In this document: positions 3,126 through 43,893 of the stretch, one piece after another
Layout of the letters: each line of letters starts with the position of its first letter
How positions within the stretch are numbered: position 1 is the first letter of the stretch
DNA from: a bacterium
GTDB taxonomy: Bacteria; JAMOTN01
Length of the DNA stretch: 43,893 bases
NCBI GenBank assembly: GCA_027062325.1
Contig: JAMOTN010000029.1
Location: forward strand, 1-43,893
Direction: 5' to 3'
Notes under the pieces: generated by a model
Told to the model about the DNA's origin: nothing
Database searches by the model: none
Seen by the model: only the letters and a program-made list of their open reading frames with translations
Made by a program: the position numbers and the translations under genes

Positions 3126-3168
3126 TCCCCATCACCTCTCAAGCTTATACTCATACCCCTTATCTACT

Positions 3169-4236: not shown

Positions 4237-4276
4237 CCCTTTATCAAATCATTTATACTTAATCATTTTGCCTTAA

Positions 4277-6007: not shown

Positions 6008-6013
6008 CTTAAA

Positions 6014-8151: not shown

Positions 8152-8172
8152 CGAATTTCTGCTTTAAAAACA

Positions 8173-10907: not shown

Positions 10908-10965
10908 TTAATGCCATCACCTACACAATAGAAAGCAACCTTTTTACAAGCATTCAAGTCTTAAC

Positions 10966-23694: not shown

Positions 23695-23866
23695 AAAAAT
23701 CCCTCCTCATTCTTTTATGTTTTAGTATATCAAATCTTATAATTTTAGAACTGCAAACCCCTACAAAAGCTAGAAAAATATATAAATCACTTACTTTCAA
23801 AATTTGCTAAACTAGTAGTGTACCTAACAAAAGCACTCTAAAATCTTTAAGTACATATAAGGGGGT

Positions 23867-25810
23867 ATGTCTATGAATTTTTTCAGAAAAATTTCTCCCG
23901 AATTTCAAATTAGGGCATGTTTGATTGTACTATTTCTATCGATCGTGGCATCAGTTTTATGGGGTAGCAAATTTATTTTCTTAAACTACATTCCATTGCT
24001 GCTATCCTTTATTGCGATTTTCCACATCCCAATTCAGATCAAGAAAAAACAAGAATTACTTAATAAGCACTCCAATGCAGCCATAGAAGAGATCCGACCA
24101 TTTGAACTTTTCGTATTTAACAAATTCCCAAACCTTGAAAAATTTCCAAAATTTATAAAACCGCTTCTTAAATTTGCTGCTCGATTTGCTGCAGCCACTG
24201 TGGCTCAGTTGAAAGCATTCACCAGCCAATCACAGGTTATTCTAGAAATAAGAAATTTCATGGAAAACCTACAAAACAAAATCCAAAAACACTCTGAAAC
24301 ATCAAATGAAGTTTCTCAAACAATGCTTGAAGTATCAGAAGAGGCAAACCGCACCATCAAAAATACTCTTAATTCCTTTAACGAATTCAATATCGCAATA
24401 GAAGACATAAACAAGAGCATACTCCACACAGTAGAAAAAACAGCCATAGCACGTGATAAGGCTGAGCATGTAAAAGGAAGAATTGAAAAATTATTCGAGA
24501 GTTCTCAAAACATTCTGGAAGTATCACATGTTATAGAACAAATAGCTGAACAAACAAACCTTCTTGCTATAAACGCCTCCATTGAAGCTTCCAGAGCTGG
24601 AGAAGCTGGAAAAGGATTTGCAATAGTAGCCCAGGAAGTTAAAAATCTTGCTGAAGAAACAGAGCAAGCTACAAAACGCATATCCGAAATCATAAGCTCA
24701 ATCCGTGAGGAAATAACTGCAAGTGTAAAAGCTGTTGCAGAAATTGCAGAAGACGTCGTAGATATCGACAAATACGCTAATAATGTCGCAGCTGCAAGTG
24801 AAGAACAGTATGCAACTCTAGCTAACGTCAAAGAACAAATGAACGCTATGTCAAACATAATAGAAGCCGTAGCAGAAAAAGCTGTTCAATTAAATGAACA
24901 CATTAAAGACTTTGAAAAGCTCGATAAACTTCTCAAAACTTCCACTAACGTTCTAAGTATCATCGCAAACCAGAATACGGCAATGTTAGCTAACATCTCC
25001 ATAAGCAGCGACTTTCAAGATGTTGTCCTTAAAGAAGCTTCTCGCTACACTGCATTTAAAACAGCCTTTACGAAACACTATGAATGGATTAATGAAGTCA
25101 TAAGCGCCCTCATTCAAGCTAAACCACCAGAGGTTGAAGTTGATCCAAATAAGTGTTTCTTAGGTAAGCTCCTTGCATCTTACACACCAAGCAATGAAAA
25201 AGAACGTGAAATTTTACTTATAATTGAAGATCTGCATTCCACTCTTCACCGCTCTGTAGCTGACATCCAGCAGCTACTCACAAGTGGAAATATTGAAGGA
25301 GCTCATGAAATTCTAACAACTGTAACTCTCAAGGCATTCTATGAACTTTCTACCACCTTCAATAAACTCCTTACGATTTTTGAAGAAAAAGAGGGTATTA
25401 ACCGTGATTTTATGCCTTGGGGTCCACAGTTCACACTGGGCATCTCAATAATCGATTCCCAGCACAAAAAATTATTTGACCTGGTAAACAATCTATACAA
25501 AGCTTTCAAAACTGGCAAAGACCACGCTGTATTGGAAAGCATTTTAGAAGAACTCACTTCATATACAGATTACCACTTCAAAACAGAAGAGGAACTATTT
25601 GAGAAATACGGTTATCCAGAAACAGACATTCACAAAGAAATTCACAAGAAACTTGTCGACAAAGTAGTAGCGTTTTTACATAACTTTAAAGCTGGAAAAG
25701 CTACGGTTAACTTTGAAGTTTTAAACTTCTTAAAGAATTGGCTGACAAACCACATTGGGGTAACTGATAGAAAATATGCACCATTCCTCAAATCCAAAGG
25801 TGTGAAGTAG
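23867..25810 (+). CDS. Methyl-accepting chemotaxis protein with C-terminal CZB and hemerythrin domains
   Basis: Two N-terminal TMs; IAEQTNLLAINASIEASRAGEAGKGFAIVA; CZB-like HYEW..CFLGK..HSTLH; hemerythrin IDSQH, HFKTEE, HKEIH, HIGVTD. Confidence 0.9.
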   Translation: MSMNFFRKISPEFQIRACLIVLFLSIVASVLWGSKFIFLNYIPLLLSFIAIFHIPIQIKKKQELLNKHSNAAIEEIRPFELFVFNKFPNLEKFPKFIKPLLKFAARFAAATVAQLKAFTSQSQVILEIRNFMENLQNKIQKHSETSNEVSQTMLEVSEEANRTIKNTLNSFNEFNIAIEDINKSILHTVEKTAIARDKAEHVKGRIEKLFESSQNILEVSHVIEQIAEQTNLLAINASIEASRAGEAGKGFAIVAQEVKNLAEETEQATKRISEIISSIREEITASVKAVAEIAEDVVDIDKYANNVAAASEEQYATLANVKEQMNAMSNIIEAVAEKAVQLNEHIKDFEKLDKLLKTSTNVLSIIANQNTAMLANISISSDFQDVVLKEASRYTAFKTAFTKHYEWINEVISALIQAKPPEVEVDPNKCFLGKLLASYTPSNEKEREILLIIEDLHSTLHRSVADIQQLLTSGNIEGAHEILTTVTLKAFYELSTTFNKLLTIFEEKEGINRDFMPWGPQFTLGISIIDSQHKKLFDLVNNLYKAFKTGKDHAVLESILEELTSYTDYHFKTEEELFEKYGYPETDIHKEIHKKLVDKVVAFLHNFKAGKATVNFEVLNFLKNWLTNHIGVTDRKYAPFLKSKGVK

Positions 25811-25834
25811 AATTGTTATGAGTATGAAACAAAT

Positions 25835-25864
25835 AAAAAAAGGGGGCTTTAAAAGCCCCCCTTT
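25835..25864. terminator. Bidirectional intrinsic terminator
   Basis: A-run, GGGGGCTTT-A-AAAGCCCCC stem, T-run; between convergent genes. Confidence 0.85.
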
Positions 25865-25888
25865 AAATTTTCTACACACATTTTCACA

Positions 25889-26602
25889 TCACTTTCCAAA
25901 CCGCAAGCTTTTTAACTTCAACCTCAAATAAACTGTATGCCAATACTCCGCTTTATTCTCATCTTTACCACAGTAACTCATCCAATTATCATAAGCTTTT
26001 TTTACAAGGTAATCGTTCCAATTATTAAAAGCTGCAAAATCAAGCACTGCAGAATCAAAATCTGTGTACTTTAATGTACCACTTTTATATTCAACTGCTT
26101 CCTTTTCTCCAACATAGCGCTTCTGCTTGCTACTCCTTACAACAACTAATCCTCTCCAAACAACTGCCTTACCACTTCTAGATTTATAACTATAATCAAC
26201 ACCAAAACAGGTTCCTTTAACTGCAGCAACAAAAGAAGGCGTGACTACTCTAAAGCCCTGATCAGTCTTGACAACATTCAACCATACCTTTCCCCTCTTG
26301 AGCTTAACAGTGGTTGGATAAAGTTTTAAAAGTGCAGGTCCTGCTACTCGTAAAACGTGTCCTTTATCAAACCTTAACTCTAAATTAGCCCCCTGAGCCA
26401 ACTTCAATACATCTTTACTCTCAAGTGCAGCTCCTTCCTTCAACTCAAACTCATTGTGCCCTCTTTTTACCTTAATCTCCCCAAATACAAGCGTAGCAAT
26501 TGCCAGTCTATTGCTCCCGGCTAAAACCTTCAAAGAGGTAACTGCGAAGACCACCACTACTAATAACAACTCCAACTTCCTCACTAACTTCTTCTCTATC
26601 AT
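25889..26602 (-). CDS. FecR-domain exported protein
   Basis: Signal peptide; LKRGKVW, FRVVTPSFVAAVKGTCFGV, VWRGLV. Confidence 0.8.
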   Translation of the reverse strand: MIEKKLVRKLELLLVVVVFAVTSLKVLAGSNRLAIATLVFGEIKVKRGHNEFELKEGAALESKDVLKLAQGANLELRFDKGHVLRVAGPALLKLYPTTVKLKRGKVWLNVVKTDQGFRVVTPSFVAAVKGTCFGVDYSYKSRSGKAVVWRGLVVVRSSKQKRYVGEKEAVEYKSGTLKYTDFDSAVLDFAAFNNWNDYLVKKAYDNWMSYCGKDENKAEYWHTVYLRLKLKSLRFGK

Positions 26603-26659
26603 AATTTATACCGCCTCCTCTCTTAATTTTCTTTCTACTTCTACTCAACTGAGCTAAAC

Positions 26660-29299
26660 TTATATTCCATCAGCTAAAGTTGGAACATAAACTTTTTCTG
26701 CAACACTTTTTACAAACTTAGCAGCCTCATCAACACGAGCGAAATTCTCAAGCCCAACACCACTTATCACACGCACGCTGCGTTTAGTCTTTGTCAAAAT
26801 CACAGCTGCTCCAATAAAATTAGTACCTTTATCCCCACTAACATATTCTCCAACAACCTCAGTCTTGGCTCCCCCACTTTTCACCACATCAAACACCGTA
26901 GGAAGAGCCATCGCCGTATTGGCTCCAGCTGTTCTCAAAGCAAAAACCTCATCTTCCAAGCGCAATTTAACTCCTTCTACATCCCTAGCAAATTCAACTT
27001 TGAATATACGTCTCAAAGCATCATCTGCCAACTCAAGCTGCTCCACTCCTACTCCCATCATAACAACTCTACCGCCACCTCTTAAAAACTTATAAAGTTC
27101 TGCCACTTCAAATCTACTAATACTAGCAGGATTTCCTCCGACACTCCAAAACACCACTGCGTCTCTGTAATTTTTCAAAACTTTAGCATTAACCGGCCCA
27201 AATACCTCTGGAATCCAAATATCCACTACGTATCCTGCTCCTCTCAATATCTGGGCATAGTACTTACCGTAAACCATATTGGCATACAAACTCCCTTGAT
27301 TCATCACTAACAATGCATTTCCATTCCTCACAAACTTTGGCTTCAAACTTATCAACTCATCCCAGTGAGTAGCAGCTGCCCAATCAAGGTTTTTATAAGA
27401 TATCATGTAATTTAAAACCGAAGGAACATACACACTCAAACCAAAACTTCCCGCCATTTCCGGCGTATGCCCTTCTGCAAACACAACACCTGAAGAGTAA
27501 ACAACACTGGCATTCTTTATTTTACCTTCACTCGACCAACTATCATCATCTAAGTAATGAATCACATAGTTTATTTCATCAACTCTTTCATCACCTATGA
27601 ATGGCCCAATCTCAACAACCCACTTATTTCCCTCTTTCCTAAAAGGAGTCACAACACACTTTTTATCTTCACGCAACTTGCTGCCAAAAGGCCAGTACTT
27701 TTTATCAGGTACTTTCCAACCGTTTATCCCCCAATGAATCTCTGCAGGTCTGGAGAACTCAATGTGGATTGGATCATTAAAAATTTTTTTATTCTTATCT
27801 TGTAAAGATGTCACCAACTCTATTCCTTGAGTTTTGATAACCTCTAAGGCTAATCTGCCTATCTCCTGATCTTTACTCTTTAAAAGTTGAGATACATTGT
27901 ACACAAAACCTAAAAGATCACAGTAATCTGGATCATCGTAGTCTCTTGTTTGAAGCCTTGCCTTTGCAATTAAACTTAAAACTTCAGGACTCTTTTTAGC
28001 TAATTCAAGAATACGCACAGCAAAATTATCTACAGCCTTGGCTAACTCGTCTATTCTATCCAAATCAATCGCAGCCTGGGTAACCTTTCCCCATCCTTGA
28101 ATTCCACCCTCATAAGACTTAACATAAGCTTCAACCACATTTTTGGCAAATTCCCTACCATCCATATCTGGCTTCTTTTTGAGACGCGCCAAAATCTCAT
28201 CATACGGCCAACCATCACCCGGCTCTGTCTGTTCACTTCCTATCATCACATGAGCAAAATCTTTAAGCTGATAAGCAACCTCTATCATCCCCATCAAACA
28301 AGCATCAAAAGCAATTACATCTAACTTCCCACCATGAACATCTCTTATTTGTCTTAAAGCACTCTTCAAAGCCCAAAAATCCAGATTATTTCCACTCGAT
28401 TCATCGTAAGAAACTCCCTTGTGAATTGGTGCCTTCCAACCAGCACCGTGATTCCATATAACAAGTGCTACACGCTCAGCTGGGAAATTCTTCATTCCCC
28501 ATTTAGCAAAGTCAACGAGAGTGGATGCTGCCCCCATATCCACTTCTCCTAAATCTGCAAGTAATCGAGAACCTATCTTTTTATTATCAATATCCAAAGT
28601 TATGTAATAACGGCGTGCTCCAGTCCAGTCTCCATTTGAGGCATCATAACCTTCTGCTCTGTCTATTTGAACCACAATCTTAACATCGTCGTCGCTTCCC
28701 ACTCTTTCCATCTCATTTATATCGTCTATTCCAGCACTTTCCAAGTCATTATCTGCATTTATATAAACGAGCACAAGCCACTTAGCCTTTTTAGTGGTCC
28801 CCCCCGTATTTTGAGATTGACTCGAACCAACAATCTCATCATCTTTTTTCCCATTTTTCCACCTGCTAACAGCATCCTGAATATAAGCTTCAACATCAAC
28901 ATTTCTGAACTCGTACTCAATCTGCTGAACCAAAACCAAAACTTTAGTCAACTGCCAATCAGACATCGTCAATACCTTTGATTTCAACAATTTTTCTATC
29001 TCTTTCACAAGATCCATAATTACAATTAAATCTTGGTTGTAGCGAAAGTACATCTGCTTTACAAAATTCTCAATTCCTTCGTAATCTTTCTTCTCTATCA
29101 TTTTCTCTGTATACTTCAAAATCCTATCCTTCAATTTTTCAGCCTTTTCTCTATACATCTCTTTTTCTTCTGTCGTTTTAGCAGCATAAAATGCTATTTT
29201 GGTAAAGAAATACTTATCAACCTTTTTCAAAAGAATATCCACATAAGCAAAGCTGAAAACAAAAGTTAGAACTACAAACAGCAGTATCCATCTCTTCAT
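26660..29299 (-). CDS. Exported clostripain-family (C11) cysteine peptidase with extra domains
   Basis: WLVLVYINADNDLE, catalytic WNHGAGW and FDACLMG, GLSVYVP...THWDELI. Confidence 0.88.
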   Translation of the reverse strand: MKRWILLFVVLTFVFSFAYVDILLKKVDKYFFTKIAFYAAKTTEEKEMYREKAEKLKDRILKYTEKMIEKKDYEGIENFVKQMYFRYNQDLIVIMDLVKEIEKLLKSKVLTMSDWQLTKVLVLVQQIEYEFRNVDVEAYIQDAVSRWKNGKKDDEIVGSSQSQNTGGTTKKAKWLVLVYINADNDLESAGIDDINEMERVGSDDDVKIVVQIDRAEGYDASNGDWTGARRYYITLDIDNKKIGSRLLADLGEVDMGAASTLVDFAKWGMKNFPAERVALVIWNHGAGWKAPIHKGVSYDESSGNNLDFWALKSALRQIRDVHGGKLDVIAFDACLMGMIEVAYQLKDFAHVMIGSEQTEPGDGWPYDEILARLKKKPDMDGREFAKNVVEAYVKSYEGGIQGWGKVTQAAIDLDRIDELAKAVDNFAVRILELAKKSPEVLSLIAKARLQTRDYDDPDYCDLLGFVYNVSQLLKSKDQEIGRLALEVIKTQGIELVTSLQDKNKKIFNDPIHIEFSRPAEIHWGINGWKVPDKKYWPFGSKLREDKKCVVTPFRKEGNKWVVEIGPFIGDERVDEINYVIHYLDDDSWSSEGKIKNASVVYSSGVVFAEGHTPEMAGSFGLSVYVPSVLNYMISYKNLDWAAATHWDELISLKPKFVRNGNALLVMNQGSLYANMVYGKYYAQILRGAGYVVDIWIPEVFGPVNAKVLKNYRDAVVFWSVGGNPASISRFEVAELYKFLRGGGRVVMMGVGVEQLELADDALRRIFKVEFARDVEGVKLRLEDEVFALRTAGANTAMALPTVFDVVKSGGAKTEVVGEYVSGDKGTNFIGAAVILTKTKRSVRVISGVGLENFARVDEAAKFVKSVAEKVYVPTLADGI

Positions 29300-29403
29300 A
29301 CTACACCCCTCCTTTGTTTAATATTATAAGGGAGAAATAAACAGCTGCTTCTATAAAATTCCTTTTGTTAAAACATAAACCGTGTCTTAAGGAGGCGATC
29401 AGA

Positions 29404-29904
29404 ATGATCAAGGAATGGCAGGGAATCACTCCAGAAATTTCAGAGGATGCATTTGTTGCAGAAACCGCCATCATTATTGGAAAAGTCAAAATAGAAAGTA
29501 AAGCAAGCATATGGTTTGGAGCCGTACTGCGTGGAGACATAGAGGATATTGTAATAAAAGAAGGAGCCAACATTCAGGATAATTGTGTAATACACACATC
29601 ACCAAACCTCCCCGTTGTGGTTGGTGAAAACACAACTGTTGGACACCTTGCAATGCTTCACGGATGTAAAATTGGTAAAAACTGTCTCATTGGTATGAGT
29701 GCAGTTATTCTAGATGGAGCTGTAGTTCCTGATAATACAATTGTTGCTGCAGGAGCAGTAGTCCCACCGGGAAAAAAATTGGAAAGCGGCATCATTTGGG
29801 CAGGCAATCCTGCAAAACCATTGCGTGAGATTCGCCCTGAAGAGATAGAAATGATAAAGAAAAATGCAGCTCACTACATTGAGCTTGCAAACAGCCACAA
29901 CTAA
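29404..29904 (+). CDS. Gamma carbonic anhydrase-family protein (YrdA/PaaY-like)
   Basis: LRGD, NIQDNCVIH, TVGHLAMLHGC, hexapeptide repeats; AAGGAGG RBS before ATG at 29404. Confidence 0.92.
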   Translation: MIKEWQGITPEISEDAFVAETAIIIGKVKIESKASIWFGAVLRGDIEDIVIKEGANIQDNCVIHTSPNLPVVVGENTTVGHLAMLHGCKIGKNCLIGMSAVILDGAVVPDNTIVAAGAVVPPGKKLESGIIWAGNPAKPLREIRPEEIEMIKKNAAHYIELANSHN

Positions 29905-29922
29905 AGTTTCACTAGTACGAAT

Positions 29923-29957
29923 AAAAAAGGGGGCTTATTTTAAGTAAGCCCCCCTTA
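29923..29957. terminator. Bidirectional intrinsic terminator
   Basis: AAAAAA-GGGGGCTTATTT-T-AAGTAAGCCCCC-CTT between convergent genes. Confidence 0.85.
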
Positions 29958-29992
29958 TCATTAATTTCAAATCCAAAATTTTGATTCTTTAT

Positions 29993-31105
29993 TTATTTTG
30001 AACTTATTGGTCTCACTCCCCTGAAATTTCTATAACCCGGTATAAAGCGCGCATTAGATTTGAATGTTGGCACCGATGGAGTAGGAACCGTTGGTATTCC
30101 CGGCAAAGTTGGCAGAGTCGTTGGAGCAACCACTGGCAAAGCTTTTGGCAAAGCTGCCGCTGGGACTTTTGTCTGACCAGGAAACCTAACTGCCCTCTTA
30201 GTAGGATAAGGCAACACACGCTCACCAGTAGCTGCAGGCATATTTCTCATTTTAGAGATCAATCTTTTTTGCATAATAAGCTTCTGTCTGATTACACTGC
30301 GCAAATTCTTACGACTCGTTTTAACTCTTCCAATAACATTTTCATGAGTAACTTTCATCTCTCCAGTAGCTTTTACCAATCCTCGCGGAGTTTTTACAAA
30401 TTTTTTAACAAGAGTTGGCACTATTGACCTCCTATTTCTTCTATTCCTTCTAACAATCGGATTAACTCCAACAGCAACAGTAGCAAGTCTATTCGTAGTT
30501 ACACCAACAAATTTTTTTCCTCCAGTAACAGCTATTGATCTTCTCCTAGTAAACAACTTCTTCAATATTAAGCTCTTTTTAACAGTATTAACCCTGACTT
30601 CATTAGAGGAAACCACCACTTCAGCAGAACCTCTCCTGTTAATCATACTTATCCTTTTCAATCTGTTTATAAGCACTTCTACAGTGGAGGTTCTAATCCT
30701 ACTCTCATAAGTACTCGTTGAAATTACTGTGCCCTTATCAGTTTCAACAGTAGCATTATTCCCTACCACCTCAACAGTAGCATCTCGGGTAACTACAGAC
30801 GTCTCTGCACTTGAAGCAGTAATGGTATAATCATCACCTCTAACAGTTGAATTGACAGCTTCAGTAGCATTAATCTCATTAGGTTCATAAGTAGCCGTAT
30901 CGTAAGGATAATATGAAGGGTAAGACTCTACAGATGACTCTGTAGATGAATAATAACTTTCGTAACTTGCATAACCATAAACTGCTTCATTAGTAGGATA
31001 ATTAGTAGGATAAGAGTAATAGCTACCTCTAGTAAAATCCCTTGCTAAACTAACAAAATACACTCCACACATCAAAACCACTATCAAAACAAGCGCTCTT
31101 CTCAT
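29993..31105 (-). CDS. Exported low-complexity hypothetical protein
   Basis: Signal peptide; Tyr/Ser-rich, then ATVE-type repeats, Arg/Lys-rich, then Pro/Thr-rich segments; GAGGGG RBS. Confidence 0.7.
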   Translation of the reverse strand: MRRALVLIVVLMCGVYFVSLARDFTRGSYYSYPTNYPTNEAVYGYASYESYYSSTESSVESYPSYYPYDTATYEPNEINATEAVNSTVRGDDYTITASSAETSVVTRDATVEVVGNNATVETDKGTVISTSTYESRIRTSTVEVLINRLKRISMINRRGSAEVVVSSNEVRVNTVKKSLILKKLFTRRRSIAVTGGKKFVGVTTNRLATVAVGVNPIVRRNRRNRRSIVPTLVKKFVKTPRGLVKATGEMKVTHENVIGRVKTSRKNLRSVIRQKLIMQKRLISKMRNMPAATGERVLPYPTKRAVRFPGQTKVPAAALPKALPVVAPTTLPTLPGIPTVPTPSVPTFKSNARFIPGYRNFRGVRPISSK

Positions 31106-34638: not shown

Positions 34639-34959
34639 ATGAAAATATCCCTTTATGAATTTATAGAGAAGTTATTCAACTCAGAATTCAAACTCACTGT
34701 CGTATTCAAAGGTGAAAACGAAGAAAACACCTATTACGCTTTCGTTCACAACAGAAAAAATATACTCATACCCGTTACCAAACTTCCAAAATTATTTGTC
34801 GAAGCTTTCGAATATTTCTTAGAATTTAGAGGACTTGAAGAACCACCAAATCCAATTTTAGACCTAGCCGATTACTTTCAATTCGTAGTAGAAGAATTCA
34901 AAATAAAAAATGTCCCAATTTACGCAGAGATGCAGCTCATCTATCCCGACAAAACGTAA
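34639..34959 (+). CDS. Hypothetical protein (106 aa)
   Basis: GGGGGTGG RBS; co-oriented with the Cys-rich ORF. Confidence 0.65.
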   Translation: MKISLYEFIEKLFNSEFKLTVVFKGENEENTYYAFVHNRKNILIPVTKLPKLFVEAFEYFLEFRGLEEPPNPILDLADYFQFVVEEFKIKNVPIYAEMQLIYPDKT

Positions 34960-36175
34960 GAACAATCTCGTACTTATCATTGCTACTAACATAGTTCAAG
35001 AGGTGAACCACTAATTCTGTCTTATATTTTACCATTAAAGCACTATTTACCCCGTGCAACTCTTTCCACAAACCAGCAACAAACCATCCACCTAAGTATA
35101 CTGCACCATCAACTCCAAGCATCAAATGAACAGTTTGCACTCTATTATTTCCTAAAATGCCTTTTATTAATTCACTCAATTCGTTAAAATACTTTGGAAA
35201 ATTTTTCAGGCAGCTTTCATGTAAAGCATCGCCACTTTCAAACCTGTAAATTTTCACATTTTCCTCTGGAAAACCATCTGGTGGGACATAAGCATTCATA
35301 CCTACCTTCTTATCACCATCTCCCCCAAAATAAACCCCAACAGGCTTTTTTTGTACTATACTAGGGTTAACACTCTTTCTCTCTTTTGACCTTAAAAGAA
35401 TAAACAACTCGTTCCTTTCAAACTTAACTAAAAATTTACCTATCCACTCCAACAAAAAATTCAATTTGACCCCTTTTCTCACTGTCCATTCATAAGTTTT
35501 TGTAAAATAAGTTAAAAGCGAAATGAATCTTCTTTCTTCTATTTTTCTACATTCAGGCAACTTTTTTAACAACTCAGCTTTCTTCTCATCGTGAGCTCTC
35601 TTCAAATACCCATCCTTTAAAACCCCTGTAAAGGCAAACTCTTCTAAATCTTCTCTTACTTCCAAACCTAAATTCTCAAAAATCGCAGAAACAAATCCTA
35701 TCAAAAATGCCAAATTCCATGACATACCTGTCAGTATCTTATGCAAACCAATATCAGTCAATTCAAATCCTAAAATCAACTCCATTTCTAACTCTTCAAA
35801 ATAATTGCTTTTTAAAACATCTATCCAAACCCTCTTATATCCCTTTTCCCTAAATAAAACTTTCTCCAATTCATCTCTTAACTTTTCCAGACCTCCCTCA
35901 AGCTCTTTTAACCATGAAAGTTTCTCTTTTCCTACATTAATTTTTTCTAAAATTCGCCCCAACTCTTTCTTATTGGCAACATTAAAAACCCATATCTTGT
36001 AAATATCCAACTCTTCATCCACAATTACTGGAAAATTCACCTTAGTAATACAGTTAGTCTCTAAAAAATCTATAAAATCTGCCCTCTCAGCTTTAAGTTT
36101 CCACAAACCGCCATTTTTAATCTTACCAGTAGTAAAATCACATTTCCATTCAAGGAAAATTAATCCACGTTCCAT
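34937..36175 (-). CDS. Lon-type protease domain plus SAVED/CARF-like lobe (CalpL-like)
   Basis: TGMS152WNLA...FAFTGVLKDG...EKK199AE Ser-Lys dyad pattern; C-terminal VHLMLGV...LNYVSSNDKYEIVL resembles a SAVED C-lobe; CRISPR context. Confidence 0.65.
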   Translation of the reverse strand: MERGLIFLEWKCDFTTGKIKNGGLWKLKAERADFIDFLETNCITKVNFPVIVDEELDIYKIWVFNVANKKELGRILEKINVGKEKLSWLKELEGGLEKLRDELEKVLFREKGYKRVWIDVLKSNYFEELEMELILGFELTDIGLHKILTGMSWNLAFLIGFVSAIFENLGLEVREDLEEFAFTGVLKDGYLKRAHDEKKAELLKKLPECRKIEERRFISLLTYFTKTYEWTVRKGVKLNFLLEWIGKFLVKFERNELFILLRSKERKSVNPSIVQKKPVGVYFGGDGDKKVGMNAYVPPDGFPEENVKIYRFESGDALHESCLKNFPKYFNELSELIKGILGNNRVQTVHLMLGVDGAVYLGGWFVAGLWKELHGVNSALMVKYKTELVVHLLNYVSSNDKYEIVLTFCRDR

Positions 36176-36194
36176 CTCTATACCTCATAAATCC

Positions 36195-37226
36195 CTATAC
36201 TTCTTCAATATCAATCACAACTTCCCCTGCCTTCATAAGAGCAAACATAACTTTTAGTTCTTCTCCTTTTTGGGCATCTCCTTTATTATCTAAAATCAAT
36301 GGTAACATATCAATCTCAAACTCTAATTCATCTCTTTGATTATTCCTCTTGTTAATAAAAACCAACTTATATTTTCTTCCTCTCTCAAGTTTTTCCATAA
36401 CTTCGTCTAATATATCAATAAACAAACTAACCTTTTCTTTATACTCAACTAATTTAACCATCACCTTTTCAAATTTTTTAACTTTTTCTGGTCCTTCTGC
36501 AGCAGCCGCTAACACTATCCGTTCCTGTGGAGGACATAAGTAACTCTTTAAAACTTCATAAACTTTATTTAATACAATAACTTGAGCAGATTTACCCGAT
36601 AAAACAACCTGCTCTTTTTTTTTAACATCTGCAATTTCTAATAATTCGTCGAAATACACCAATTTCCAATTTATTTCAGCTAAGATTGATCTAACTTCTA
36701 ACCGAAAGTCTCCTTTTTTAAGGTACGGTATGCCCCGAGACAGAATAAAATGTTTTAGATCTACTGATAAAATTAAATTTGAAGCTTCTCCAACTCCTGT
36801 TAATTTTTTTATTACTTCCGCCACCTCTTCAGGAACATAAGAAACTAAATAGCAAATTTTCCTTATCGAATTCAAACTTAACGTGCAGACAGCATCTGTA
36901 AATACTGCCCACACTCCTCCTTTCATATCTCTTACCACCCAATCCTGCATATCCGCAAGAATGTGATATTTACTCACAAGCACCACATCTGCCATTTCTC
37001 CATCTTCATCTAATATCAAAATCCCAAAATCCTCAGCCCCCTCGAATACATATAAATCTCCTTCCGAAAAAATTACTGGATAATTTTTCTTCTCCTTCTC
37101 ATTTAACACTTCTAAATATTTTCCTTCAAACATTTCTTTCAAACTTCGTGCTTTTTCTAATATTTCCTCCTCATTATATTTTCCTAATATTTCCTCAACC
37201 TTTCTCTTTAATGCTTCCAACTTCAT
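36195..37226 (-). CDS. Putative anti-sigma factor/protease target (CalpT-like)
   Basis: EGDLYVF...VVLVSKYHILADMQDWVV...YLVSYVPEE resembles a MazF/PemK-like fold; LAAAAE linker; between sigma and protease genes. Confidence 0.55.
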   Translation of the reverse strand: MKLEALKRKVEEILGKYNEEEILEKARSLKEMFEGKYLEVLNEKEKKNYPVIFSEGDLYVFEGAEDFGILILDEDGEMADVVLVSKYHILADMQDWVVRDMKGGVWAVFTDAVCTLSLNSIRKICYLVSYVPEEVAEVIKKLTGVGEASNLILSVDLKHFILSRGIPYLKKGDFRLEVRSILAEINWKLVYFDELLEIADVKKKEQVVLSGKSAQVIVLNKVYEVLKSYLCPPQERIVLAAAAEGPEKVKKFEKVMVKLVEYKEKVSLFIDILDEVMEKLERGRKYKLVFINKRNNQRDELEFEIDMLPLILDNKGDAQKGEELKVMFALMKAGEVVIDIEEV

Positions 37227-37278
37227 CGCTGACCCCTCCCTGCTTAGTAGTTTGTCTTAAAGCTTCTCCATTTTGTAG

Positions 37279-37305
37279 GACCTATGTAACTACCTTCTTG
37301 TGACA
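37279..37305 (-). promoter_or_regulatory. Candidate ECF-type promoter 2: TGTCACA-N16-GGTC
   Basis: Overlaps the sigma gene stop and points at the CalpT-like gene about 50 nt downstream. Confidence 0.55.
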
Positions 37306-38136
37306 AAACAATTTTTTAATTTTTTCCCAGCACAACTTCGCACTTTCAAACTCCAACTTATCTAACTCTTCTTTGGCAATTTCTTGCATCTCCTCACTAC
37401 ACAAATACAAAGCAATTAAACATTCCTCGACTACTTCAGATAATTCTTCTTCTGCTAAGAAAAACTCTTTCCATTCTTCTTCAACAGTTTTCCAAAACTC
37501 CTTTAACTTTTTCTCAGCTCTTGACTTCTGCTTTCTAGCAACCGCAGGCATAGAAAATTTATAAATTTCTCTGCACTCATCAACAACACTGTGAATACCT
37601 CTCACAATATTTTTTAACATCGTCCAAAACATTCCTACCAATTCAGCAGGAGTAAAATTTAGGAACTTTTTCATCTCTTCAATAAATGCTTCATAGTAAT
37701 CAAGCTGAGGAATAGAAAACTTCTTATTCAAATTCTCTAATTTCTCAATATCCAACTTTTCATTATCATCCAAACTATCAATCTGTAGCTGATACTTTTT
37801 CTTCTCTTCTTCCAAATAGCTTGACCAACTATGAATAACAGTGGTTTTGAAATAATTATAATATTTACCCCACTCTCCAGATTTCGGATCAAATGCCAAG
37901 GTTTTATTTTTCATTGCTTTCTCAATTTTATGCAAGTACTTATCAATAAAATCCTCTATTATTAAGAATGGCAAATCTGGAAATTTTTTTCTGATAATTT
38001 TAACCATAATTTTTTCAACACTATTTTGCAACTCTGCTACTGCCTTCAGACTAACACCAGCATTTTCATCATGCAAAATCCTAAAATAATAGTAGAGTAC
38101 ATGAGCCGGAGTTTCCTTCCTATTCACTGTAATCAC
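37282..38136 (-). CDS. Divergent sigma70/ECF-like factor (CalpS-like)
   Basis: Region 2-like FDPKSG..YYNYFKTTVIHSWSSYLEEEKK..IDSLDD; region 4-like end VARKQKSRAEKKLKEF. Confidence 0.65.
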   Translation of the reverse strand: MITVNRKETPAHVLYYYFRILHDENAGVSLKAVAELQNSVEKIMVKIIRKKFPDLPFLIIEDFIDKYLHKIEKAMKNKTLAFDPKSGEWGKYYNYFKTTVIHSWSSYLEEEKKKYQLQIDSLDDNEKLDIEKLENLNKKFSIPQLDYYEAFIEEMKKFLNFTPAELVGMFWTMLKNIVRGIHSVVDECREIYKFSMPAVARKQKSRAEKKLKEFWKTVEEEWKEFFLAEEELSEVVEECLIALYLCSEEMQEIAKEELDKLEFESAKLCWEKIKKLFCHKKVVT

Positions 38137-38155
38137 TCCTTCAAAATAGTACTAT

Positions 38156-38827
38156 TTATTCAACAGCTAAAACTCTCTCAATAAACTTCAAAGCTTCCCT
38201 TCTCCCTCCAAACATTTTTATCAAATCAACTCCATGTTTTCTCGCGCATTCTCTAAATACGCTTTCACTTTTTCTAATATAATTCCAATATCTACTATTC
38301 AAGTAAATTTTCCTCACCCTTTTCTTTTTAGGATTAATTCCTATGTAACTAGCATTTTCCATCAAATACTCCCTACATTCTCCCTCAATACTAACCATAT
38401 CCCATTTAACAGATAAAAGATCAATTTTCAAATTTTTTACTCCTAGAAATTTAGGATAACTTGTAAGAAACAGTAATCGCTCTCCTTTTAAAAACCTCCA
38501 CCTTAAAACTGGTCGCCTGTCTTTATTCCCTAACCATCTCTCTACAACCTCTCTCAACTCTTGAGGCAAATTTTTATCAAACCTCCAGAAAATCTTATTT
38601 TTCAAATACCCAAACGTCACTGTTGAATTTTTCTCAACAATTCTAATAATCTCATCATCTGACATCTTTTTCTTAAACTTAAACTTTCTCCTATTCCTAA
38701 ATTTAACATTCCTTTTATTCTTACTTCTCTTAGTAGTTTCTCCATCCTCACTATCGCCACTTGAGCTAAAAATAAAATAACCAGCCGCCATTAACATCCC
38801 CAAAATTACTCCACCTAAACCGTTCAT
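38156..38827 (-). CDS. Hypothetical basic membrane-anchored protein
   Basis: N-terminal TM, Lys/Arg-rich; GGGGGA RBS; 19 nt upstream of the sigma gene. Confidence 0.65.
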   Translation of the reverse strand: MNGLGGVILGMLMAAGYFIFSSSGDSEDGETTKRSKNKRNVKFRNRRKFKFKKKMSDDEIIRIVEKNSTVTFGYLKNKIFWRFDKNLPQELREVVERWLGNKDRRPVLRWRFLKGERLLFLTSYPKFLGVKNLKIDLLSVKWDMVSIEGECREYLMENASYIGINPKKKRVRKIYLNSRYWNYIRKSESVFRECARKHGVDLIKMFGGRREALKFIERVLAVE

Positions 38828-38887
38828 AACTTATCCCCCCATATTTTCCAACAAAAATTCACTATCTATATTTTACTTCTTTGAAAC

Positions 38888-38914
38888 TGTCACAAAAAAC
38901 AAACCTCCCCCATC
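38888..38914 (+). promoter_or_regulatory. Candidate ECF-type promoter 3: TGTCACA-N16-CATC
   Basis: Same motif and spacing as the other two; followed by AAGGAGGTGGT and ATG at 38951. Confidence 0.6.
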
Positions 38915-38950
38915 TTTCTATAAATACCCCAATTCAAGGAGGTGGTAACA

Positions 38951-39013
38951 ATGATGATCCTCATCTTTTGGATATTTCTTAATTTAAAAAACAAAACAAA
39001 AAACCTCCCTTAA
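38951..39013 (+). CDS. Possible 20-aa peptide MMILIFWIFLNLKNKTKNLP
   Basis: Consensus RBS AAGGAGGT at good spacing; below the ORF-track cutoff. Confidence 0.35.
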   Translation: MMILIFWIFLNLKNKTKNLP

Positions 39014-39037
39014 TCTCACTTATCATCTCCAAAACCT

Positions 39038-39361
39038 CTACGCAATAATACCAGAAAACTTATTCTTAAAGTAATTCTCAACTTTCCTTAAATTTGCCTT
39101 AACTTTATTCAACACTTTGTCTTCAACAGATGTTATAAACAAATTGTCATCCTCATCCAATATTTTCTCAAGCTCTTTTAACACCTTATCAAGTTGCCTC
39201 TTTGACAAGTAACATGCAAACACACTGAACTGAACATCAACACCATACCTTCTAAGTAACTCCAAAATTTTTCTATCCTTTTTAGAATACCTAGTCCTAT
39301 CTTTCGCTCTAATATCATAAGATATGATGTAAATCTTTTTAGAAACCGTCATACATATCAC
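39038..39361 (-). CDS. cas2: CRISPR-associated Cas2 (second copy)
   Basis: YIISYDI...LRRYGVDVQFSVF...DDNLFI. Confidence 0.9.
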   Translation of the reverse strand: MICMTVSKKIYIISYDIRAKDRTRYSKKDRKILELLRRYGVDVQFSVFACYLSKRQLDKVLKELEKILDEDDNLFITSVEDKVLNKVKANLRKVENYFKNKFSGIIA

Positions 39362-39423
39362 TTGTCCTCTTGGTAGTCATAAGACTCCCTTACTAACACA
39401 ACTCTCCCTAAAAATTCATCTTT

Positions 39424-40845
39424 TCACTTTAACACTTCAAGCACATCCTTGTACAAACGCTTCAACTCATTACTCCTATAGTAAAAACCTGCTAAATTAA
39501 GCAAAACGTTCCCAGGAACAACGTAACTAACAAACCAATTAATAAAACTTTTGATCTGACCATTTAAAATTATCCTATAAGAAAACACCTCATCATCTAT
39601 CCAGTTCACTAATTCCTGAGCAAACGAAGAGAAAGTTTTGCTCCCCAACTCTTCCGCCAAGAAAAAGTTTGCTTCCCACAAACTTGAATCACCCTCACTC
39701 CACGAAGGAACATCTAAAAATCTAAATGCCACCATTAAAGCCAAATACTCCAACAAATCATCTCTAAACTCTGTATCCTTTAGCATCTGCTCTATAAATC
39801 CCACAACCAAGATTAGCAATGAAAAGTAAGCAAATCCAAACATATCAAATGCATTAACGTGGAAAAACCAAAGTTCTTTTTTACTCATATCATCGTAATG
39901 ACTCTGTCTAACAACACGTTTAATTTCGTTAACAAATCCTCTTAAAAATCTGTTAATTCCATAAGCCGAAAAAGTACCATTTCCAAGTGTATCCAGCTCC
40001 CCCAAAAACCATTCCAACTCATGTCTAACTTTCAACTCCCACTTAAATAACCCTATCAAATCAGAGCTCTTGTTTAGAGAATGCCTAAAAACTTTATTGT
40101 AACCTCCCCAACTGAACACCTCATCGGAAAACGCAGTATAACACCTACCAATCAACTTTTTATATTCATACTTATATTCATCAAGTATCCTCAACATCTG
40201 CTCTTCAGCAGGAGATAAATTGTGCTTCCCCCTTAAGAACTCGTAAAACGGCTTTCTGTAGTTCGCCCACCACTGCTTACGTATTCTCTCTTTCTCCTTA
40301 GCCCTGCCTCTCTTATCCAAAACCTTTTTCAACTCTCCATAGCTCATTTCATTCCACGTAACTTTAGCAACAATACTCTTTACCCGCCTCAAAAAAGTAT
40401 CAACTTTTTTTCTCATAGGTGTTACTGCCTCAGTCAAACTTCTGAACAAATCCGCTATATTTGGAGTTTTTAATCTATCAAGCATAAACATGTAATTTAA
40501 GCAATCAAAATTCACACAGTAGTTGTAAAACTCCCTCGCCAAATCAACGTTCTGCTTCAAAAAAGCATTTTTTAACTCTTCACGTTCTCTGCTGCTCACC
40601 CTCCTACTAATAGGAGTTACACGCTTAAATAATCCCAAGCAATTTCCAGCAAATTCCCACCTAGCATCAACTTCCCAAAAAACATCATCCGTCAGCCTAA
40701 ATTTATACTTTCCATCATCTCTTTTAACCAATAAACGTTCTATTTGCGGCACTACAATTTTGACAGTTCGAGGTTTAGTTCTTTTCTTACGATTTATAAG
40801 AACTCCAGCAACTTTTCCTAGAAACTCCAATATTCCCATTCTCAT
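39424..40845 (-). CDS. Highly diverged, probably inactive Cas1 paralogue
   Basis: Collinear by-eye matches to Cas1: IVVPQIERLLV, DLAREF..NYMFML, FLRGFVNE (cf. LRGYEG), VNAFDMFGFAY (cf. LNLFFNYAY), DDLLE (cf. SDIME), YRIILNGQI; His loop absent; flanked by two cas2 genes. Confidence 0.55.
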   Translation of the reverse strand: MRMGILEFLGKVAGVLINRKKRTKPRTVKIVVPQIERLLVKRDDGKYKFRLTDDVFWEVDARWEFAGNCLGLFKRVTPISRRVSSREREELKNAFLKQNVDLAREFYNYCVNFDCLNYMFMLDRLKTPNIADLFRSLTEAVTPMRKKVDTFLRRVKSIVAKVTWNEMSYGELKKVLDKRGRAKEKERIRKQWWANYRKPFYEFLRGKHNLSPAEEQMLRILDEYKYEYKKLIGRCYTAFSDEVFSWGGYNKVFRHSLNKSSDLIGLFKWELKVRHELEWFLGELDTLGNGTFSAYGINRFLRGFVNEIKRVVRQSHYDDMSKKELWFFHVNAFDMFGFAYFSLLILVVGFIEQMLKDTEFRDDLLEYLALMVAFRFLDVPSWSEGDSSLWEANFFLAEELGSKTFSSFAQELVNWIDDEVFSYRIILNGQIKSFINWFVSYVVPGNVLLNLAGFYYRSNELKRLYKDVLEVLK

Positions 40846-40889
40846 CTCTTCCTAAATCAACATATACCCCTTGACTATACAAACATTTC

Positions 40890-41153
40890 TTAAACTATCA
40901 TCCATCTAAAAAATTTTCTATTTCCCAAATAAATTCGCCCCTTGCAATCATTATCAGTTTGGGGAATAAAAAGCAACCTATCCCCTTTATTCAAAAGCTG
41001 AGAACAATCCCAATACAAATCATTCACTTTCTTAAAAGGGATTTCTATTTCAAAAATACTGTATTGAATCCTACAACCGTATTTTAAGAGCAAAGCAGAA
41101 ATTTTCCTCCTAATTTTATCATCTGAAATATCAAAAGCCACTAACCACTTCAT
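40890..41153 (-). CDS. cas2: CRISPR-associated Cas2 (first copy)
   Basis: WLVAFDISDDKIRRKI...YGCRIQYSIFE...GDRL. Confidence 0.93.
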   Translation of the reverse strand: MKWLVAFDISDDKIRRKISALLLKYGCRIQYSIFEIEIPFKKVNDLYWDCSQLLNKGDRLLFIPQTDNDCKGRIYLGNRKFFRWMIV

Positions 41154-41187
41154 TTCCAGATACTCCTTTAGTAGTTATATTGGCTCC

Positions 41188-42795
41188 TTAACCATTAACT
41201 TTTCTCTCTCCAAACTTTCTCAATGCTTTTTCAAAGGAGCTTATATCCTCCTTCAAAAATCTCTCCACAATTCTCAATAATCTAAACTCAAACCATTCAG
41301 AAACTACTCGCACCACCAATGAAAAATCCAGATCAAATCTTTCCTTATTCAACAACGCCCTAAGAATTCTTTCAAATTCATCTTCCTCTCTATTCTTCTG
41401 GCCATCCTCTTCGCCATCCTCGGCAGCAACATCTTTAATTACCTGCAATCTCCTAAGCTCTTCCAACAAACTTACCCATATATTATATCTCAAACTTTCC
41501 AACAAACTCTCCAACTTCTCATCCTTGCCATAAAGTGCCGTGTTCAATTCTTTATATTTACTCCTAAAAGGATGCTTTACCTCTTCTGTCCATTCCAAAT
41601 AAAGCTTTAAAATTGAACTCAATACATCAGAATCTCCCAAATCCCCATCTTCCTCACAAGCCTCATTGATAGCAATATCATTTTTAGAACAAGATTCACT
41701 ATTAGAGTTACAATTGCGTCTTTCATTTTTTTCATTATTGCCTACATTTTTACCAGCATCCGTAAATCCTTTCAAAAATCTTTCTAAGTCACCCCTTTTA
41801 TCATCCAAAAACCTATTAAAAACAACGGTATCAAAAACCACATGTTTTATGAGTAGCACACGCACTCTTTCCATAATATCCGACGCTAAAGCATAGTGTC
41901 TCCCCCTCTTTATGTGCATCACACCGAGTGAGGGATTGAAATTTTTTATCAAGAGTATGCAAGTTGTAAGGTTGTATATGAGAGTATATGCATAATTAAA
42001 GAATAGATTTAAGAAATCATTTGACTTCCTGTCACGCCTTTTAAACGCCGGATCCAAACCAAAAGTTCCTAACACATTCTTCATCAAATCAAACATGAAT
42101 ACACTAGCTCTTCCTTCATAACCCCTTAGAGTATTAATCTGCGAATCCAAGACATTTACATAAGTTTCCAGATTCCTAGCTATCCTCTTTTTATAGCTGC
42201 CTAACTCTTTCAAAAAATCATGCAGTCGCTTTTTGGTATTTTTCAACCAATTTAACAATCTAAGTCCATTATATTCACTATCAGCCTCCCCATTCTCATC
42301 AGTCCAGTTTCCATGTTCCGTCTTCACTTTCAAAAACAGTAGTTCTGTTAGCTCAAAAAGACTTACCATTTCCTGAATTTTGTCACGCACTATCTTAATA
42401 ATAAAATTTAATCTCCAGGGTGAGTTAGTCAATAACATTTGAAGTTCTCGTAATTTGTAAGCACTAAAGTAAGAAGACGGTAAAATAACCGACTTTATAC
42501 TCAAATTTCTTCCTACAATTATTACTTTTTTCTCATAGTTCGCTAATAATCCTAAAGCTTGCGTTGTTAATTGAACATTCTGTGAAACTATAAGGTAATC
42601 AATTGCAGCTATTGGAATTTGAATTTTTTCAGGATAAGAACGAGCATCACTAACTCCGCCAATATCAATTTTTTTGCTAATTCCTCCTGTAGAAACAGTA
42701 AGATTAGTAGAAGTTAGTGATGTAAGAACAGAAAAAGGCCGAAACAATAAACTTCCCTTCTCTACTCTCAACTTACCGGGTTTAAGGATTATCAT
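41188..42795 (-). CDS. cas1: CRISPR-associated Cas1, enlarged (535 aa)
   Basis: IPIAAIDYLIV, LTTQALGLL, LRGYEG (E), NYAY, LGVMH (H), LASDIME (D/E). Confidence 0.92.
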   Translation of the reverse strand: MIILKPGKLRVEKGSLLFRPFSVLTSLTSTNLTVSTGGISKKIDIGGVSDARSYPEKIQIPIAAIDYLIVSQNVQLTTQALGLLANYEKKVIIVGRNLSIKSVILPSSYFSAYKLRELQMLLTNSPWRLNFIIKIVRDKIQEMVSLFELTELLFLKVKTEHGNWTDENGEADSEYNGLRLLNWLKNTKKRLHDFLKELGSYKKRIARNLETYVNVLDSQINTLRGYEGRASVFMFDLMKNVLGTFGLDPAFKRRDRKSNDFLNLFFNYAYTLIYNLTTCILLIKNFNPSLGVMHIKRGRHYALASDIMERVRVLLIKHVVFDTVVFNRFLDDKRGDLERFLKGFTDAGKNVGNNEKNERRNCNSNSESCSKNDIAINEACEEDGDLGDSDVLSSILKLYLEWTEEVKHPFRSKYKELNTALYGKDEKLESLLESLRYNIWVSLLEELRRLQVIKDVAAEDGEEDGQKNREEDEFERILRALLNKERFDLDFSLVVRVVSEWFEFRLLRIVERFLKEDISSFEKALRKFGERKVNG

Positions 42796-43223
42796 GATTT
42801 ATATTATAAAATAATATTCGAGATAACGATGGATATATTCTGTTTGTAATCAAAAAATTGATGAGGGGGGAAGTTATAGAAATAAATTTAGGGATATGTA
42901 GCTGAACCGTCTTAATCGAAAAATTAAACGGAACTTTAATATATCTCTAGGTTTTCTATGAGTATTAGTTAAAAGTAGCAGCTGTAAATTGAAATCAACA
43001 TTAATGACAAGAGTAAATACTGCAATAAAGTAGAATAAGAAGAGGGAGCTGTTTAGTGTAAAATTGTTCAAATAATTAAAAATTTTGAAAACGAGGGCTA
43101 TTCAAGAAAGAGCTAATTTGAAGTATACTAATTGTGCAATTTAAAATTTGAAAAAGAAGTGTACAAGCGTCTTCCCCACTAGTGGGTTAAAATTGCCTAT
43201 TCAGAATATATATGATAAGTAGT
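42796..43223 (+). promoter_or_regulatory. AT-rich CRISPR leader / divergent cas promoter region
   Basis: AT-rich gap between cas1 start and the first repeat; candidate sigma70 promoter TTCAAG(43101)-N17-TATACT(43124-43129). Confidence 0.7.
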
Positions 43224-43893
43224 GTTTCATTGCCGAACACTTACTAACGGATTACGACATATATCGCCCTCGTAGAGGGCTACGGAAATTCTCACAGTTT
43301 CATTGCCGAACACTTACTAACGGATTACGACCGAGTTCCCCTCGCTTCGGGTGTCCCCCCTTTGGGTTTCATTGCCGAACACTTACTAACGGATTACGAC
43401 AAACTAAACACTCTAGGTTTTACGGCAAAAGCATTTGTGTTTCATTGCCGAACACTTACTAACGGATTACGACGGGCTCGGGCGGGGTCCCGGGGCTTTT
43501 GCCCCCGCGCGGTTTCATTGCCGAACACTTACTAACGGATTACGACCCCCGACGCCCCAGTTGGGGGTGTTGGGGGCTCGTCGGTTTCATTGCCGAACAC
43601 TTACTAACGGATTACGACCGGTTTCCTTTTTTATGTTCCCTTTTGCAGCTGTGAGAGCCCGGGCCCCGCACCCGAGCTCCCATACGACCGGTTTCCTTTT
43701 TTATGTTCCCTTTTGCAGTTTCTGTTTCATTGCCGAACACTTACTAACGGATTACGACGAGTCTTCGACTCCCTTATTTATTTATAATGAAAAGTTTCAT
43801 TGCCGAACACTTACTAACGGATTACGACGTGAGGTCGCGGCCGCGGTCCTCAGGCCTAAGCCTGAGTTTCATTGCCGAACACTTACTAACGGA
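43224..43893 (+). CRISPR. CRISPR array, 35-nt repeat GTTTCATTGCCGAACACTTACTAACGGATTACGAC, 8 full repeats plus 1 cut by the window edge; type III-like
   Basis: Identical repeats at 43224, 43297, 43366, 43439, 43512, 43584, 43724, 43794, 43866; spacers of 38, 34, 38, 38, 37, 105, 35, 37 nt; 3' end ATTACGAC resembles type III 8-nt handles. Confidence 0.98.

Follow-up and report, generated by a model that had tools for sequence, protein, structure and literature searches.

A spacer-length insert between 36-bp direct duplications in a CRISPR array, probably integrated out of register, in an uncultured bacterium

The CRISPR locus, its cas genes and the host genome

The window analysed here, 43,893 nt long, is one whole contig (C29) of a metagenome-assembled genome, which comprises 1,647,580 bases in 81 contigs, is 83.9% complete and has a GC content of 38%. 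Genes for a type IV pilus and secretin on the contig identify the organism as a bacterium. The sequencing runs in which most of the stretch is found carry the label hydrothermal vent metagenome. Kinship with the nearest genomes searched goes no further than the same domain in any case (60/60), and within that collection the organism seems isolated at a high taxonomic rank. Across most of positions 1-42000 of the window the GC skew is about -0.2 to -0.5 and nearly all long open reading frames lie on the minus strand; the coding strands of this part are therefore purine-rich.

The contig end falls within a CRISPR array (Table 1). The repeat is exactly 35 nt long: its eight full copies are identical, and the neighbouring bases on both sides are variable. 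These direct repeats are regularly interspaced by unique spacers of 34-38 nt, with periods of 69-73 nt, in all but the sixth unit, which measures 140 nt. This is the sole array with this repeat in the genome. Between the start of cas1 and the first repeat lies an AT-rich intergenic region, the presumed leader, with three sigma-70-like sites on the plus strand, the last at positions 43187-43216 (consensus match only). If this region is the leader, spacer 1 is presumably the newest; the direction of the array is deduced on that basis.

Table 1. Positions of the array, of its nested insertion and of the associated genes (window coordinates unless another contig is named)
Feature	Position	Strand	Remarks
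CRISPR array	43224..43893	+	8 identical 35-nt repeats; the 9th is partial, truncated at the contig end
AT-rich intergenic region, presumed leader	42796..43223	+	between cas1 start and first repeat
cas1, presumed integrase	41188..42795	-	535 aa; TIGR00287 E 4e-26; PF01867 E 1.7e-28; PADLOC Cas1 E 1e-32
cas2	40890..41153	-	87 aa; PF09827 E 1.4e-16; best PADLOC model Cas2_IIIb E 1.2e-18
Second cas2	39038..39361	-	107 aa; PF09827 E 2.6e-15; PADLOC Cas2b E 3e-19
Csm-type (type III-A-like) effector set	contig C25, about 22300-30100		Cas10, two Csm3, Csm4, weak Csm2 and Cas6
Repeat 6	43584..43618	+	last 6 nt (43613-43618) within the duplicated target
Target-site duplication, left copy, 36 bp	43613..43648	+	TACGAC of the repeat, then nt 1-30 of the old spacer; 100% identity
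Inserted spacer, 34 nt	43649..43682	.	76% GC; unique in its own genome
Target-site duplication, right copy, 36 bp	43683..43718	+	100% identical to the left copy, spacing 70
Original spacer 6, 35 nt	43689..43723	+	37% GC; intact, directly abuts repeat 7
Repeat 7	43724..43758	+	

The repeat, at up to three mismatches, is carried by none of the 60 other genomes searched, and a pattern that fixes its first 8 and last 10 nt gave six single matches and no arrays elsewhere. A search of the whole array by BLAST returned chance-level matches only (seven phage records at E 0.7 and one plasmid record at E 0.2), and Rfam gave no match at E values up to 10. When the spacers and the parts of the insert were compared with the rest of the genome as possible self-targets, nothing beyond words of 12-20 nt was detected; the best self-match is 16 nt long (E 0.007) and belongs to the old spacer 6. 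Five of the nine spacer units, namely S2, S4, S5, S8 and the insert (window 43259-43865), have a GC content of 68-84% in this genome of 38% GC. In run X1, 31-letter contigs consisting of repeat only (window 43723-43823) have depths of 110 and 195, compared with 9.3 for the flank. As a rough figure taken from per-contig depths, this suggests that the array, or arrays sharing the repeat in the X1 sample, comprise roughly 12-21 repeats, compared with nine on the contig.

The array is adjoined by cas1 and cas2 genes, all of which score above the curated cut-offs. In the cas1 product the Cas1 domain covers approximately residues 56-352; the C-terminal extension behind it, about 180 amino acids, has no match. 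Both cas1 and cas2 look intact. The cas1 motifs GYEGRAS, GVMH and ALASDIME, which we take to be the catalytic E/H/D positions of Cas1, align with the corresponding stretches of solved Cas1 proteins. Among proteins of solved structure, the Cas1 part of a Cas6-RT-Cas1 fusion (7kft, E 3e-6) is the best relative. A reverse transcriptase route to RNA-derived spacers was considered and rejected, as there is no RVT_1 match in the 84%-complete genome.

The adaptation operon (34937-42795, minus strand) is transcribed away from the array and consists of cas1, cas2, a 473-aa gene, the second cas2 and four further genes of 223, 284, 343 and 412 aa. The order of the operon is unusual, and its five uncharacterised genes reach no Pfam, NCBIfam or PADLOC family. 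The 473-aa open reading frame between the two cas2 genes displays no Cas1 similarity (E 0.86), no PDB match and no usable Atlas match; a relaxed scan gave one sub-threshold Pfam match (YukC, E 0.013).

Cas10 and RAMP subunits, that is, a type III effector of Csm type, are encoded on another contig, C25, where PADLOC detects Cas10 (E 1.4e-25), two Csm3 (E 5e-54 and 6e-22) and Csm4 (E 1.6e-16). No Cas3 core match above the cut-off is found in the genome. We infer that the effector on C25 is linked to the array on the present contig and that the locus is a type III-associated CRISPR array of an uncultured bacterium. The C25 module has no array of its own in the assembled part, and it has a 513-aa neighbour without a match.

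The nested insertion, its junctions and its source

The aberrant sixth spacer of 105 nt consists of an ordinary 35-nt spacer and a 70-nt insertion, the latter made up of a 34-nt piece and a second copy of a 36-nt segment. Inspection of the sequence alone had picked out an exact 36-nt direct repeat, with a period of 70, around a unique 34-nt insert, and the sequence bears this out in every position. Each 36-nt copy begins with the final 6 letters of the CRISPR repeat and continues with 30 nt of an AT-rich spacer, so that the duplicated target is not a repeat in register. The right copy, together with the next 5 nt (TTTCT, 43719-43723), forms a normal 35-nt spacer ahead of repeat 7. The insert is of spacer length (34 nt, compared with 34-38 nt for the canonical spacers), and the exact 36-bp duplication is close in length to the 35-bp repeat.

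All 81 contigs were scanned for direct repeats that are exact, 22 nt or longer and spaced at periods of 50-99. Of the eight rows returned, seven belong to the CRISPR repeat and the remaining one to this 36-mer; a second direct repeat of about repeat length is not present in the genome within these limits. The duplication of the 36-mer is far beyond chance, and it has no sibling event in the genome.

A unit of this kind might be suspected of being an assembly or sequencing artefact, a chimera created when a repetitive array was assembled from a metagenome. Arrays are often misassembled, and the metagenome-assembled contig does stop inside this one. The sequence-only reading had itself named a chimera as a possible undoing of its interpretation. 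A second assembly, however, made with different software at k=31 from run X1, contains a 100-nt contig (record 3) that covers positions 43619-43718 with 0 differences and 0 gaps and crosses both junctions. Its depth is 8.77, compared with 9.26 for a 9.4-kb single-copy flank contig. A de Bruijn chimera requires a shared word, whereas here the junction words themselves are present; the contig excludes a graph chimera, and both junctions are real in k-mers derived from reads. X1 is the single junction-crossing run and is possibly the source sample of the window itself, which makes its evidence independent of the assembler, not of the sample. The sizes in the structure are also exactly those that one integration event predicts. 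Taken with the second assembly, this leaves an artefact very improbable.

No X1 contigs were placed over positions 43300-43599 (spacers 1-5), a gap that carries no inference. An insert-free allele was sought with the 30-nt pattern of spacer 6 in a metagenome contig collection, where it matched the window's own contig only; contigs at k=31 cannot separate an insert-free from an insert-bearing allele. The empty, pre-integration site is thus putative.

The source of the insert is seen in run X3, which belongs to a different study. A 151-nt contig (record 10) matches the insert exactly, over 34 of 34 positions, and the match is flanked by 63 and 54 nt of unrelated GC-rich sequence. The letters just before the match are ...GGGGGATTGC and those just after it are CAGGCAAACC... 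The two flanks exceed the 31-letter word and differ from one another, and are therefore not CRISPR repeats; the 34-nt block in X3 is a protospacer in its native context. As the match ends exactly at the edges of the insert, the insert is 34 nt and the duplication 36 bp. The insert is a real spacer of foreign origin. The X3 contig also rules out a different parsing of the unit, into a 35-nt spacer, a degenerate 35-nt repeat and a second 35-nt spacer, because CTGTG, the first five letters of the insert, stays with the GC-rich block in X3.

Other spacers of the array also match foreign DNA. In run X4, contigs that are not arrays, with non-repeat flanks, match S7 (35/35), S3 (38/38) and S8 (with 2 differences). 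The insert has no exact match in viral contigs or in genome contigs (GTDB) and none in phage or plasmid collections; S7 and S3 have no matches in viral contigs. In the X3 and X4 contigs that carry the insert and S8, GC-rich sequence lies on either side. The protospacer of S7 is situated where GC-rich sequence gives way to AT-rich, on a terminator-like hairpin with AAAGGAG after it. Positions 1917-12333 of the window encode a set of pilus and secretin proteins of a type that serves in DNA uptake, and one idea drawn from this set is that the spacers may come from the DNA of neighbours that was taken up.

Integration out of register and its alternatives

In normal acquisition each 3' end of a prespacer attacks a different strand, one at either border of a repeat, and repair of the gaps duplicates the repeat. 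The insertion in the sixth unit was very probably formed by the same kind of reaction, carried out off register by Cas1-Cas2 with staggered cuts 36 bp apart, as opposed to the 35 bp of the repeat. The core of this proposal, that a spacer-sized foreign piece entered at a non-repeat site with duplication of a segment of about repeat length, was made from the sequence at the outset and has since gained support from the sizes, the X1 junctions and the X3 protospacer. The Cas1-Cas2 of this locus is the presumed catalyst, and the assignment of the cuts to strands is likewise presumptive.

The following course of events is proposed. A 34-nt prespacer from a GC-rich foreign element would have been integrated out of register and not at a repeat border. 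Attack on the first strand would have taken place between 43612 and 43613, with 6 nt of repeat 6 still to come, and attack on the second strand 36 bp onward, past base 30 of spacer 6. When both single-stranded gaps were filled, the 36 bp between the cuts would have been duplicated, just as the 35-bp repeat is in normal integration. The usual integration chemistry, shifted 29 nt out of register, would in this way leave a spacer-length insert between two copies of the target. Because the outcome is a duplication and not a deletion, the top-strand cut is assigned to the left (43612|43613, in repeat 6) and the bottom-strand cut to the right.

The stagger of 36 bp, set against a repeat of 35 bp, implies that the spacing seems to be fixed by the geometry of the integrase, acting as a ruler, and not by the sequence of the repeat. 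A stagger of 35 bp may also be considered, but it needs an end base of the prespacer that differs from the X3 contig. The suggestion of a ruler with loose sequence specificity, which came from the sequence-only reading, is reasonable, though such rulers are already established in other systems.

Two other routes to the same structure were weighed. In one, a spacer and repeat were first duplicated in tandem, and recombination or gene conversion then put foreign sequence of equal length in place of 34 nt in the middle. The layout would have been repeat 6, spacer 6, repeat, spacer 6 and repeat 7, and the replaced part would be the last 5 nt of the spacer and the first 29 nt of the repeat. Spacer duplications do occur in CRISPR arrays. 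The arithmetic is also suggestive, in that 105 equals 3 x 35 and the 70-nt period equals one repeat plus one spacer, so that the replaced part is also exactly 34 nt. An equal length is, however, to be expected in any case when a duplication close to the repeat in size accompanies an insert close to a spacer in size. Two events are required by this route, and the second of them, an equal-length replacement by non-homologous sequence, has no known mechanism. The foreign block seen in X3 is uninterrupted and ends at the edges of the duplication, which is what integration in one step predicts instead. The route by tandem duplication appears quite improbable.

The other route is the insertion of a tiny mobile element, or some other non-Cas insertion that makes a long target duplication. 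Direct duplications around an insert are a general hallmark of transposition. The insert, however, is only 34 nt long, is present as a single copy in the genome, and has no match in phage, plasmid, viral or GTDB collections. The event is situated in a CRISPR array beside cas1 and cas2, and the length of its duplication is that of the local repeat plus 1. To our knowledge, 36 bp is far longer than the target duplications made by transposases. A transposon or MITE was rejected as a class for the single copy, for the length of the duplication and because the inverted repeat of the insert is an internal hairpin and does not form terminal repeats; the probability of a non-Cas insertion is considered next to negligible.

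The hairpin of the insert had been put forward as a sign of its orientation. On the reverse strand the insert does form a stem of 13 bp that starts at base 1 (-24.1 kcal/mol, z -4.2), and the forward strand folds at -13.2 kcal/mol. None of 3000 shuffles reaches the 13 pairs from base 1. It had further been claimed that the insert follows the pattern of the spacers but is inverted, which presupposes a rule that spacers begin with such a hairpin. Support for such a rule is limited to one spacer: among the eight canonical spacers only S5 exceeds the shuffles, with an end-flush hairpin of 12 bp from base 1 that 5 of 3000 shuffles reach, and the stems of S2, S4 and S7 are 4-6 bp long and are matched by 16-37% of shuffles. 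With only S5 and the insert passing the shuffles, the hairpin pattern was discarded as an argument that the insert is inverted. In the source contigs of X3 and X4, examined by eye, the stems extend past the edges of the spacers, that of the insert by seven further pairs and that of S7 by two; starting flush is therefore no property of the source. A G precedes the protospacer of S7 and of S8, and the insert has a G there only if it is inverted; with n=2, these flanks are too few for a PAM.

Features that might have guided the choice of site were also considered. The motif GTTTCT is present at positions 43718-43723 and had been read as a mimic of the start of the repeat. Its placement does not agree with that role. 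The duplication needs a bottom-strand cut at its right edge, and GTTTCT therefore falls in the flank, outside the duplicated segment, whereas the true start of a repeat lies inside it; the motif cannot act as a repeat start. A second candidate mimic, GTTTCCTT (43621-43628), is inside the duplicated segment but 8 nt from its edge, and was rejected as misplaced relative to the cuts. When the target was compared with the canonical leader-repeat-spacer site over 66 junction-aligned positions, 19 agreed in the direct orientation and 17 in the inverted one, and random windows of the contig gave 17.5 +/- 3.5 as background. Both counts are at background level, and mimicry of the canonical site was rejected as the cause of site choice.

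The consequences for the cell can be predicted from the way in which type III crRNAs are made, by cutting within repeats and trimming from the 3' end. With intact repeats on both sides, the sixth unit would be released as a single long precursor. Given the 3' trimming, bases 1-30 of the old spacer 6 would be kept in the mature crRNA, whereas the new piece would remain silent. The event is thus predicted to be nearly neutral. The similarity of junction depth and flank depth in X1 fits near-neutrality, but is a weak indication because the depth is one figure per contig.

A more speculative possibility is that integration of this kind, in an 'anti-register' mode, is recurrent and not a one-off slip. 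Spacer 6 is 35 nt long, the length of the repeat, so that the true borders that flank it are one ruler length apart and would frame a pseudo-target that spans the spacer. Relative to these borders, the observed cuts are displaced towards the leader by 6 and 5 nt. If this mode does exist, nested spacers would be cheap, given 3' trimming, and might persist, overlooked, as 'over-long spacers' in many arrays, and they could also seed new repeat variants. The event is a single one, with no second in the genome and no related arrays found elsewhere, and a recurrent mode is regarded as doubtful.

Relation to known integration events

Off-target integration of spacer-sized DNA has been described for the type I-E system of Escherichia coli, in which, according to the accessible account, events occur genome-wide, generate new repeats or 'neo-CRISPR' loci and can spawn new arrays (Nivala, Shipman and Church, 2018, Nat Microbiol). 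A paper that cites this work speaks, in its accessible text, of natural evidence outside the laboratory as circumstantial and from two other species. The present case resembles the E. coli neo-CRISPR events, as these are portrayed there, in that a spacer-sized piece appears to have been integrated by Cas1-Cas2 into DNA that is not in register, with duplication of the target between staggered cuts. Those events arose under laboratory overexpression and elsewhere in the chromosome, whereas the present one is natural, lies within the array and straddles a repeat-spacer border. It also differs in that the system is putatively type III-associated, belongs to a deep-branching bacterium and comes with a matching protospacer.

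Ectopic acquisition is known from type II-A systems of Streptococcus thermophilus and S. pyogenes (Achigar et al., 2017, 2021; McGinn and Marraffini, 2016). As in the streptococcal events outlined in these sources, the new spacer is located in the interior of the array and is not adjacent to the leader. As described, the streptococcal events keep the register, with duplication of a complete repeat and a functional new unit. In the present array the duplication takes in no complete repeat, and the piece is nested in an older spacer. In-register ectopic acquisition was rejected as an explanation of the sixth unit, as there is no complete repeat between positions 43619 and 43723.

A molecular ruler that determines the second site of integration, or the length of the repeat, has been reported for type I-E (Goren et al., 2016) and type II-A (Kim et al., 2019), and control by a ruler is reported for type I-B (Wang et al., 2016), as far as the accessible parts of these papers go. 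In repeat mutants of the type II-A system, a shifted second site led to 'partial duplication of the spacer' in the words of the accessible text (Kim et al., 2019). The array described here resembles these systems, as presented in those texts, in that the distance between the cuts appears to be measured and not read from the sequence. In the ruler studies the repeats were engineered and the first cut was placed at the canonical leader-repeat border, again according to the parts accessible. Here both cuts lie off the borders, 29 nt into a repeat and 30 nt into a spacer, and the flanking repeats are wild type.

Promiscuous integration in the absence of HU is reported for the type III-A Cas1-Cas2 of Thermotoga profunda in the accessible portion of a recent paper (Microlife 2026, PMC13769266). 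Both cases, to the extent that this portion covers the first, concern a type III-associated integrase of a thermophile with limited intrinsic fidelity for its site. The T. profunda work was performed in vitro with plasmids, and a footprint with duplication in a genome is not described in that portion; the present case is a genomic footprint.

The insertion in the sixth unit is a natural, well-delimited example of an already known type of event. No natural, in-array, out-of-register event was found described in the literature covered, a body from which many subscription papers and supplements fell outside scope. Natural footprints of integrase mistakes are rare. This one provides an in vivo spacing of cuts (36 bp, with a 35-bp repeat) for an uncharacterised, deep-branching and putatively type III-associated Cas1-Cas2 on a target unlike the repeat, and it supports a ruler set by protein in a system that has not been studied. 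It also points to one way in which arrays might gain irregular units and new repeat-like duplications. Array finders, and pipelines that match spacers to viruses, would see one aberrant 105-nt spacer at this locus and would miss a 34-nt spacer whose protospacer is public.
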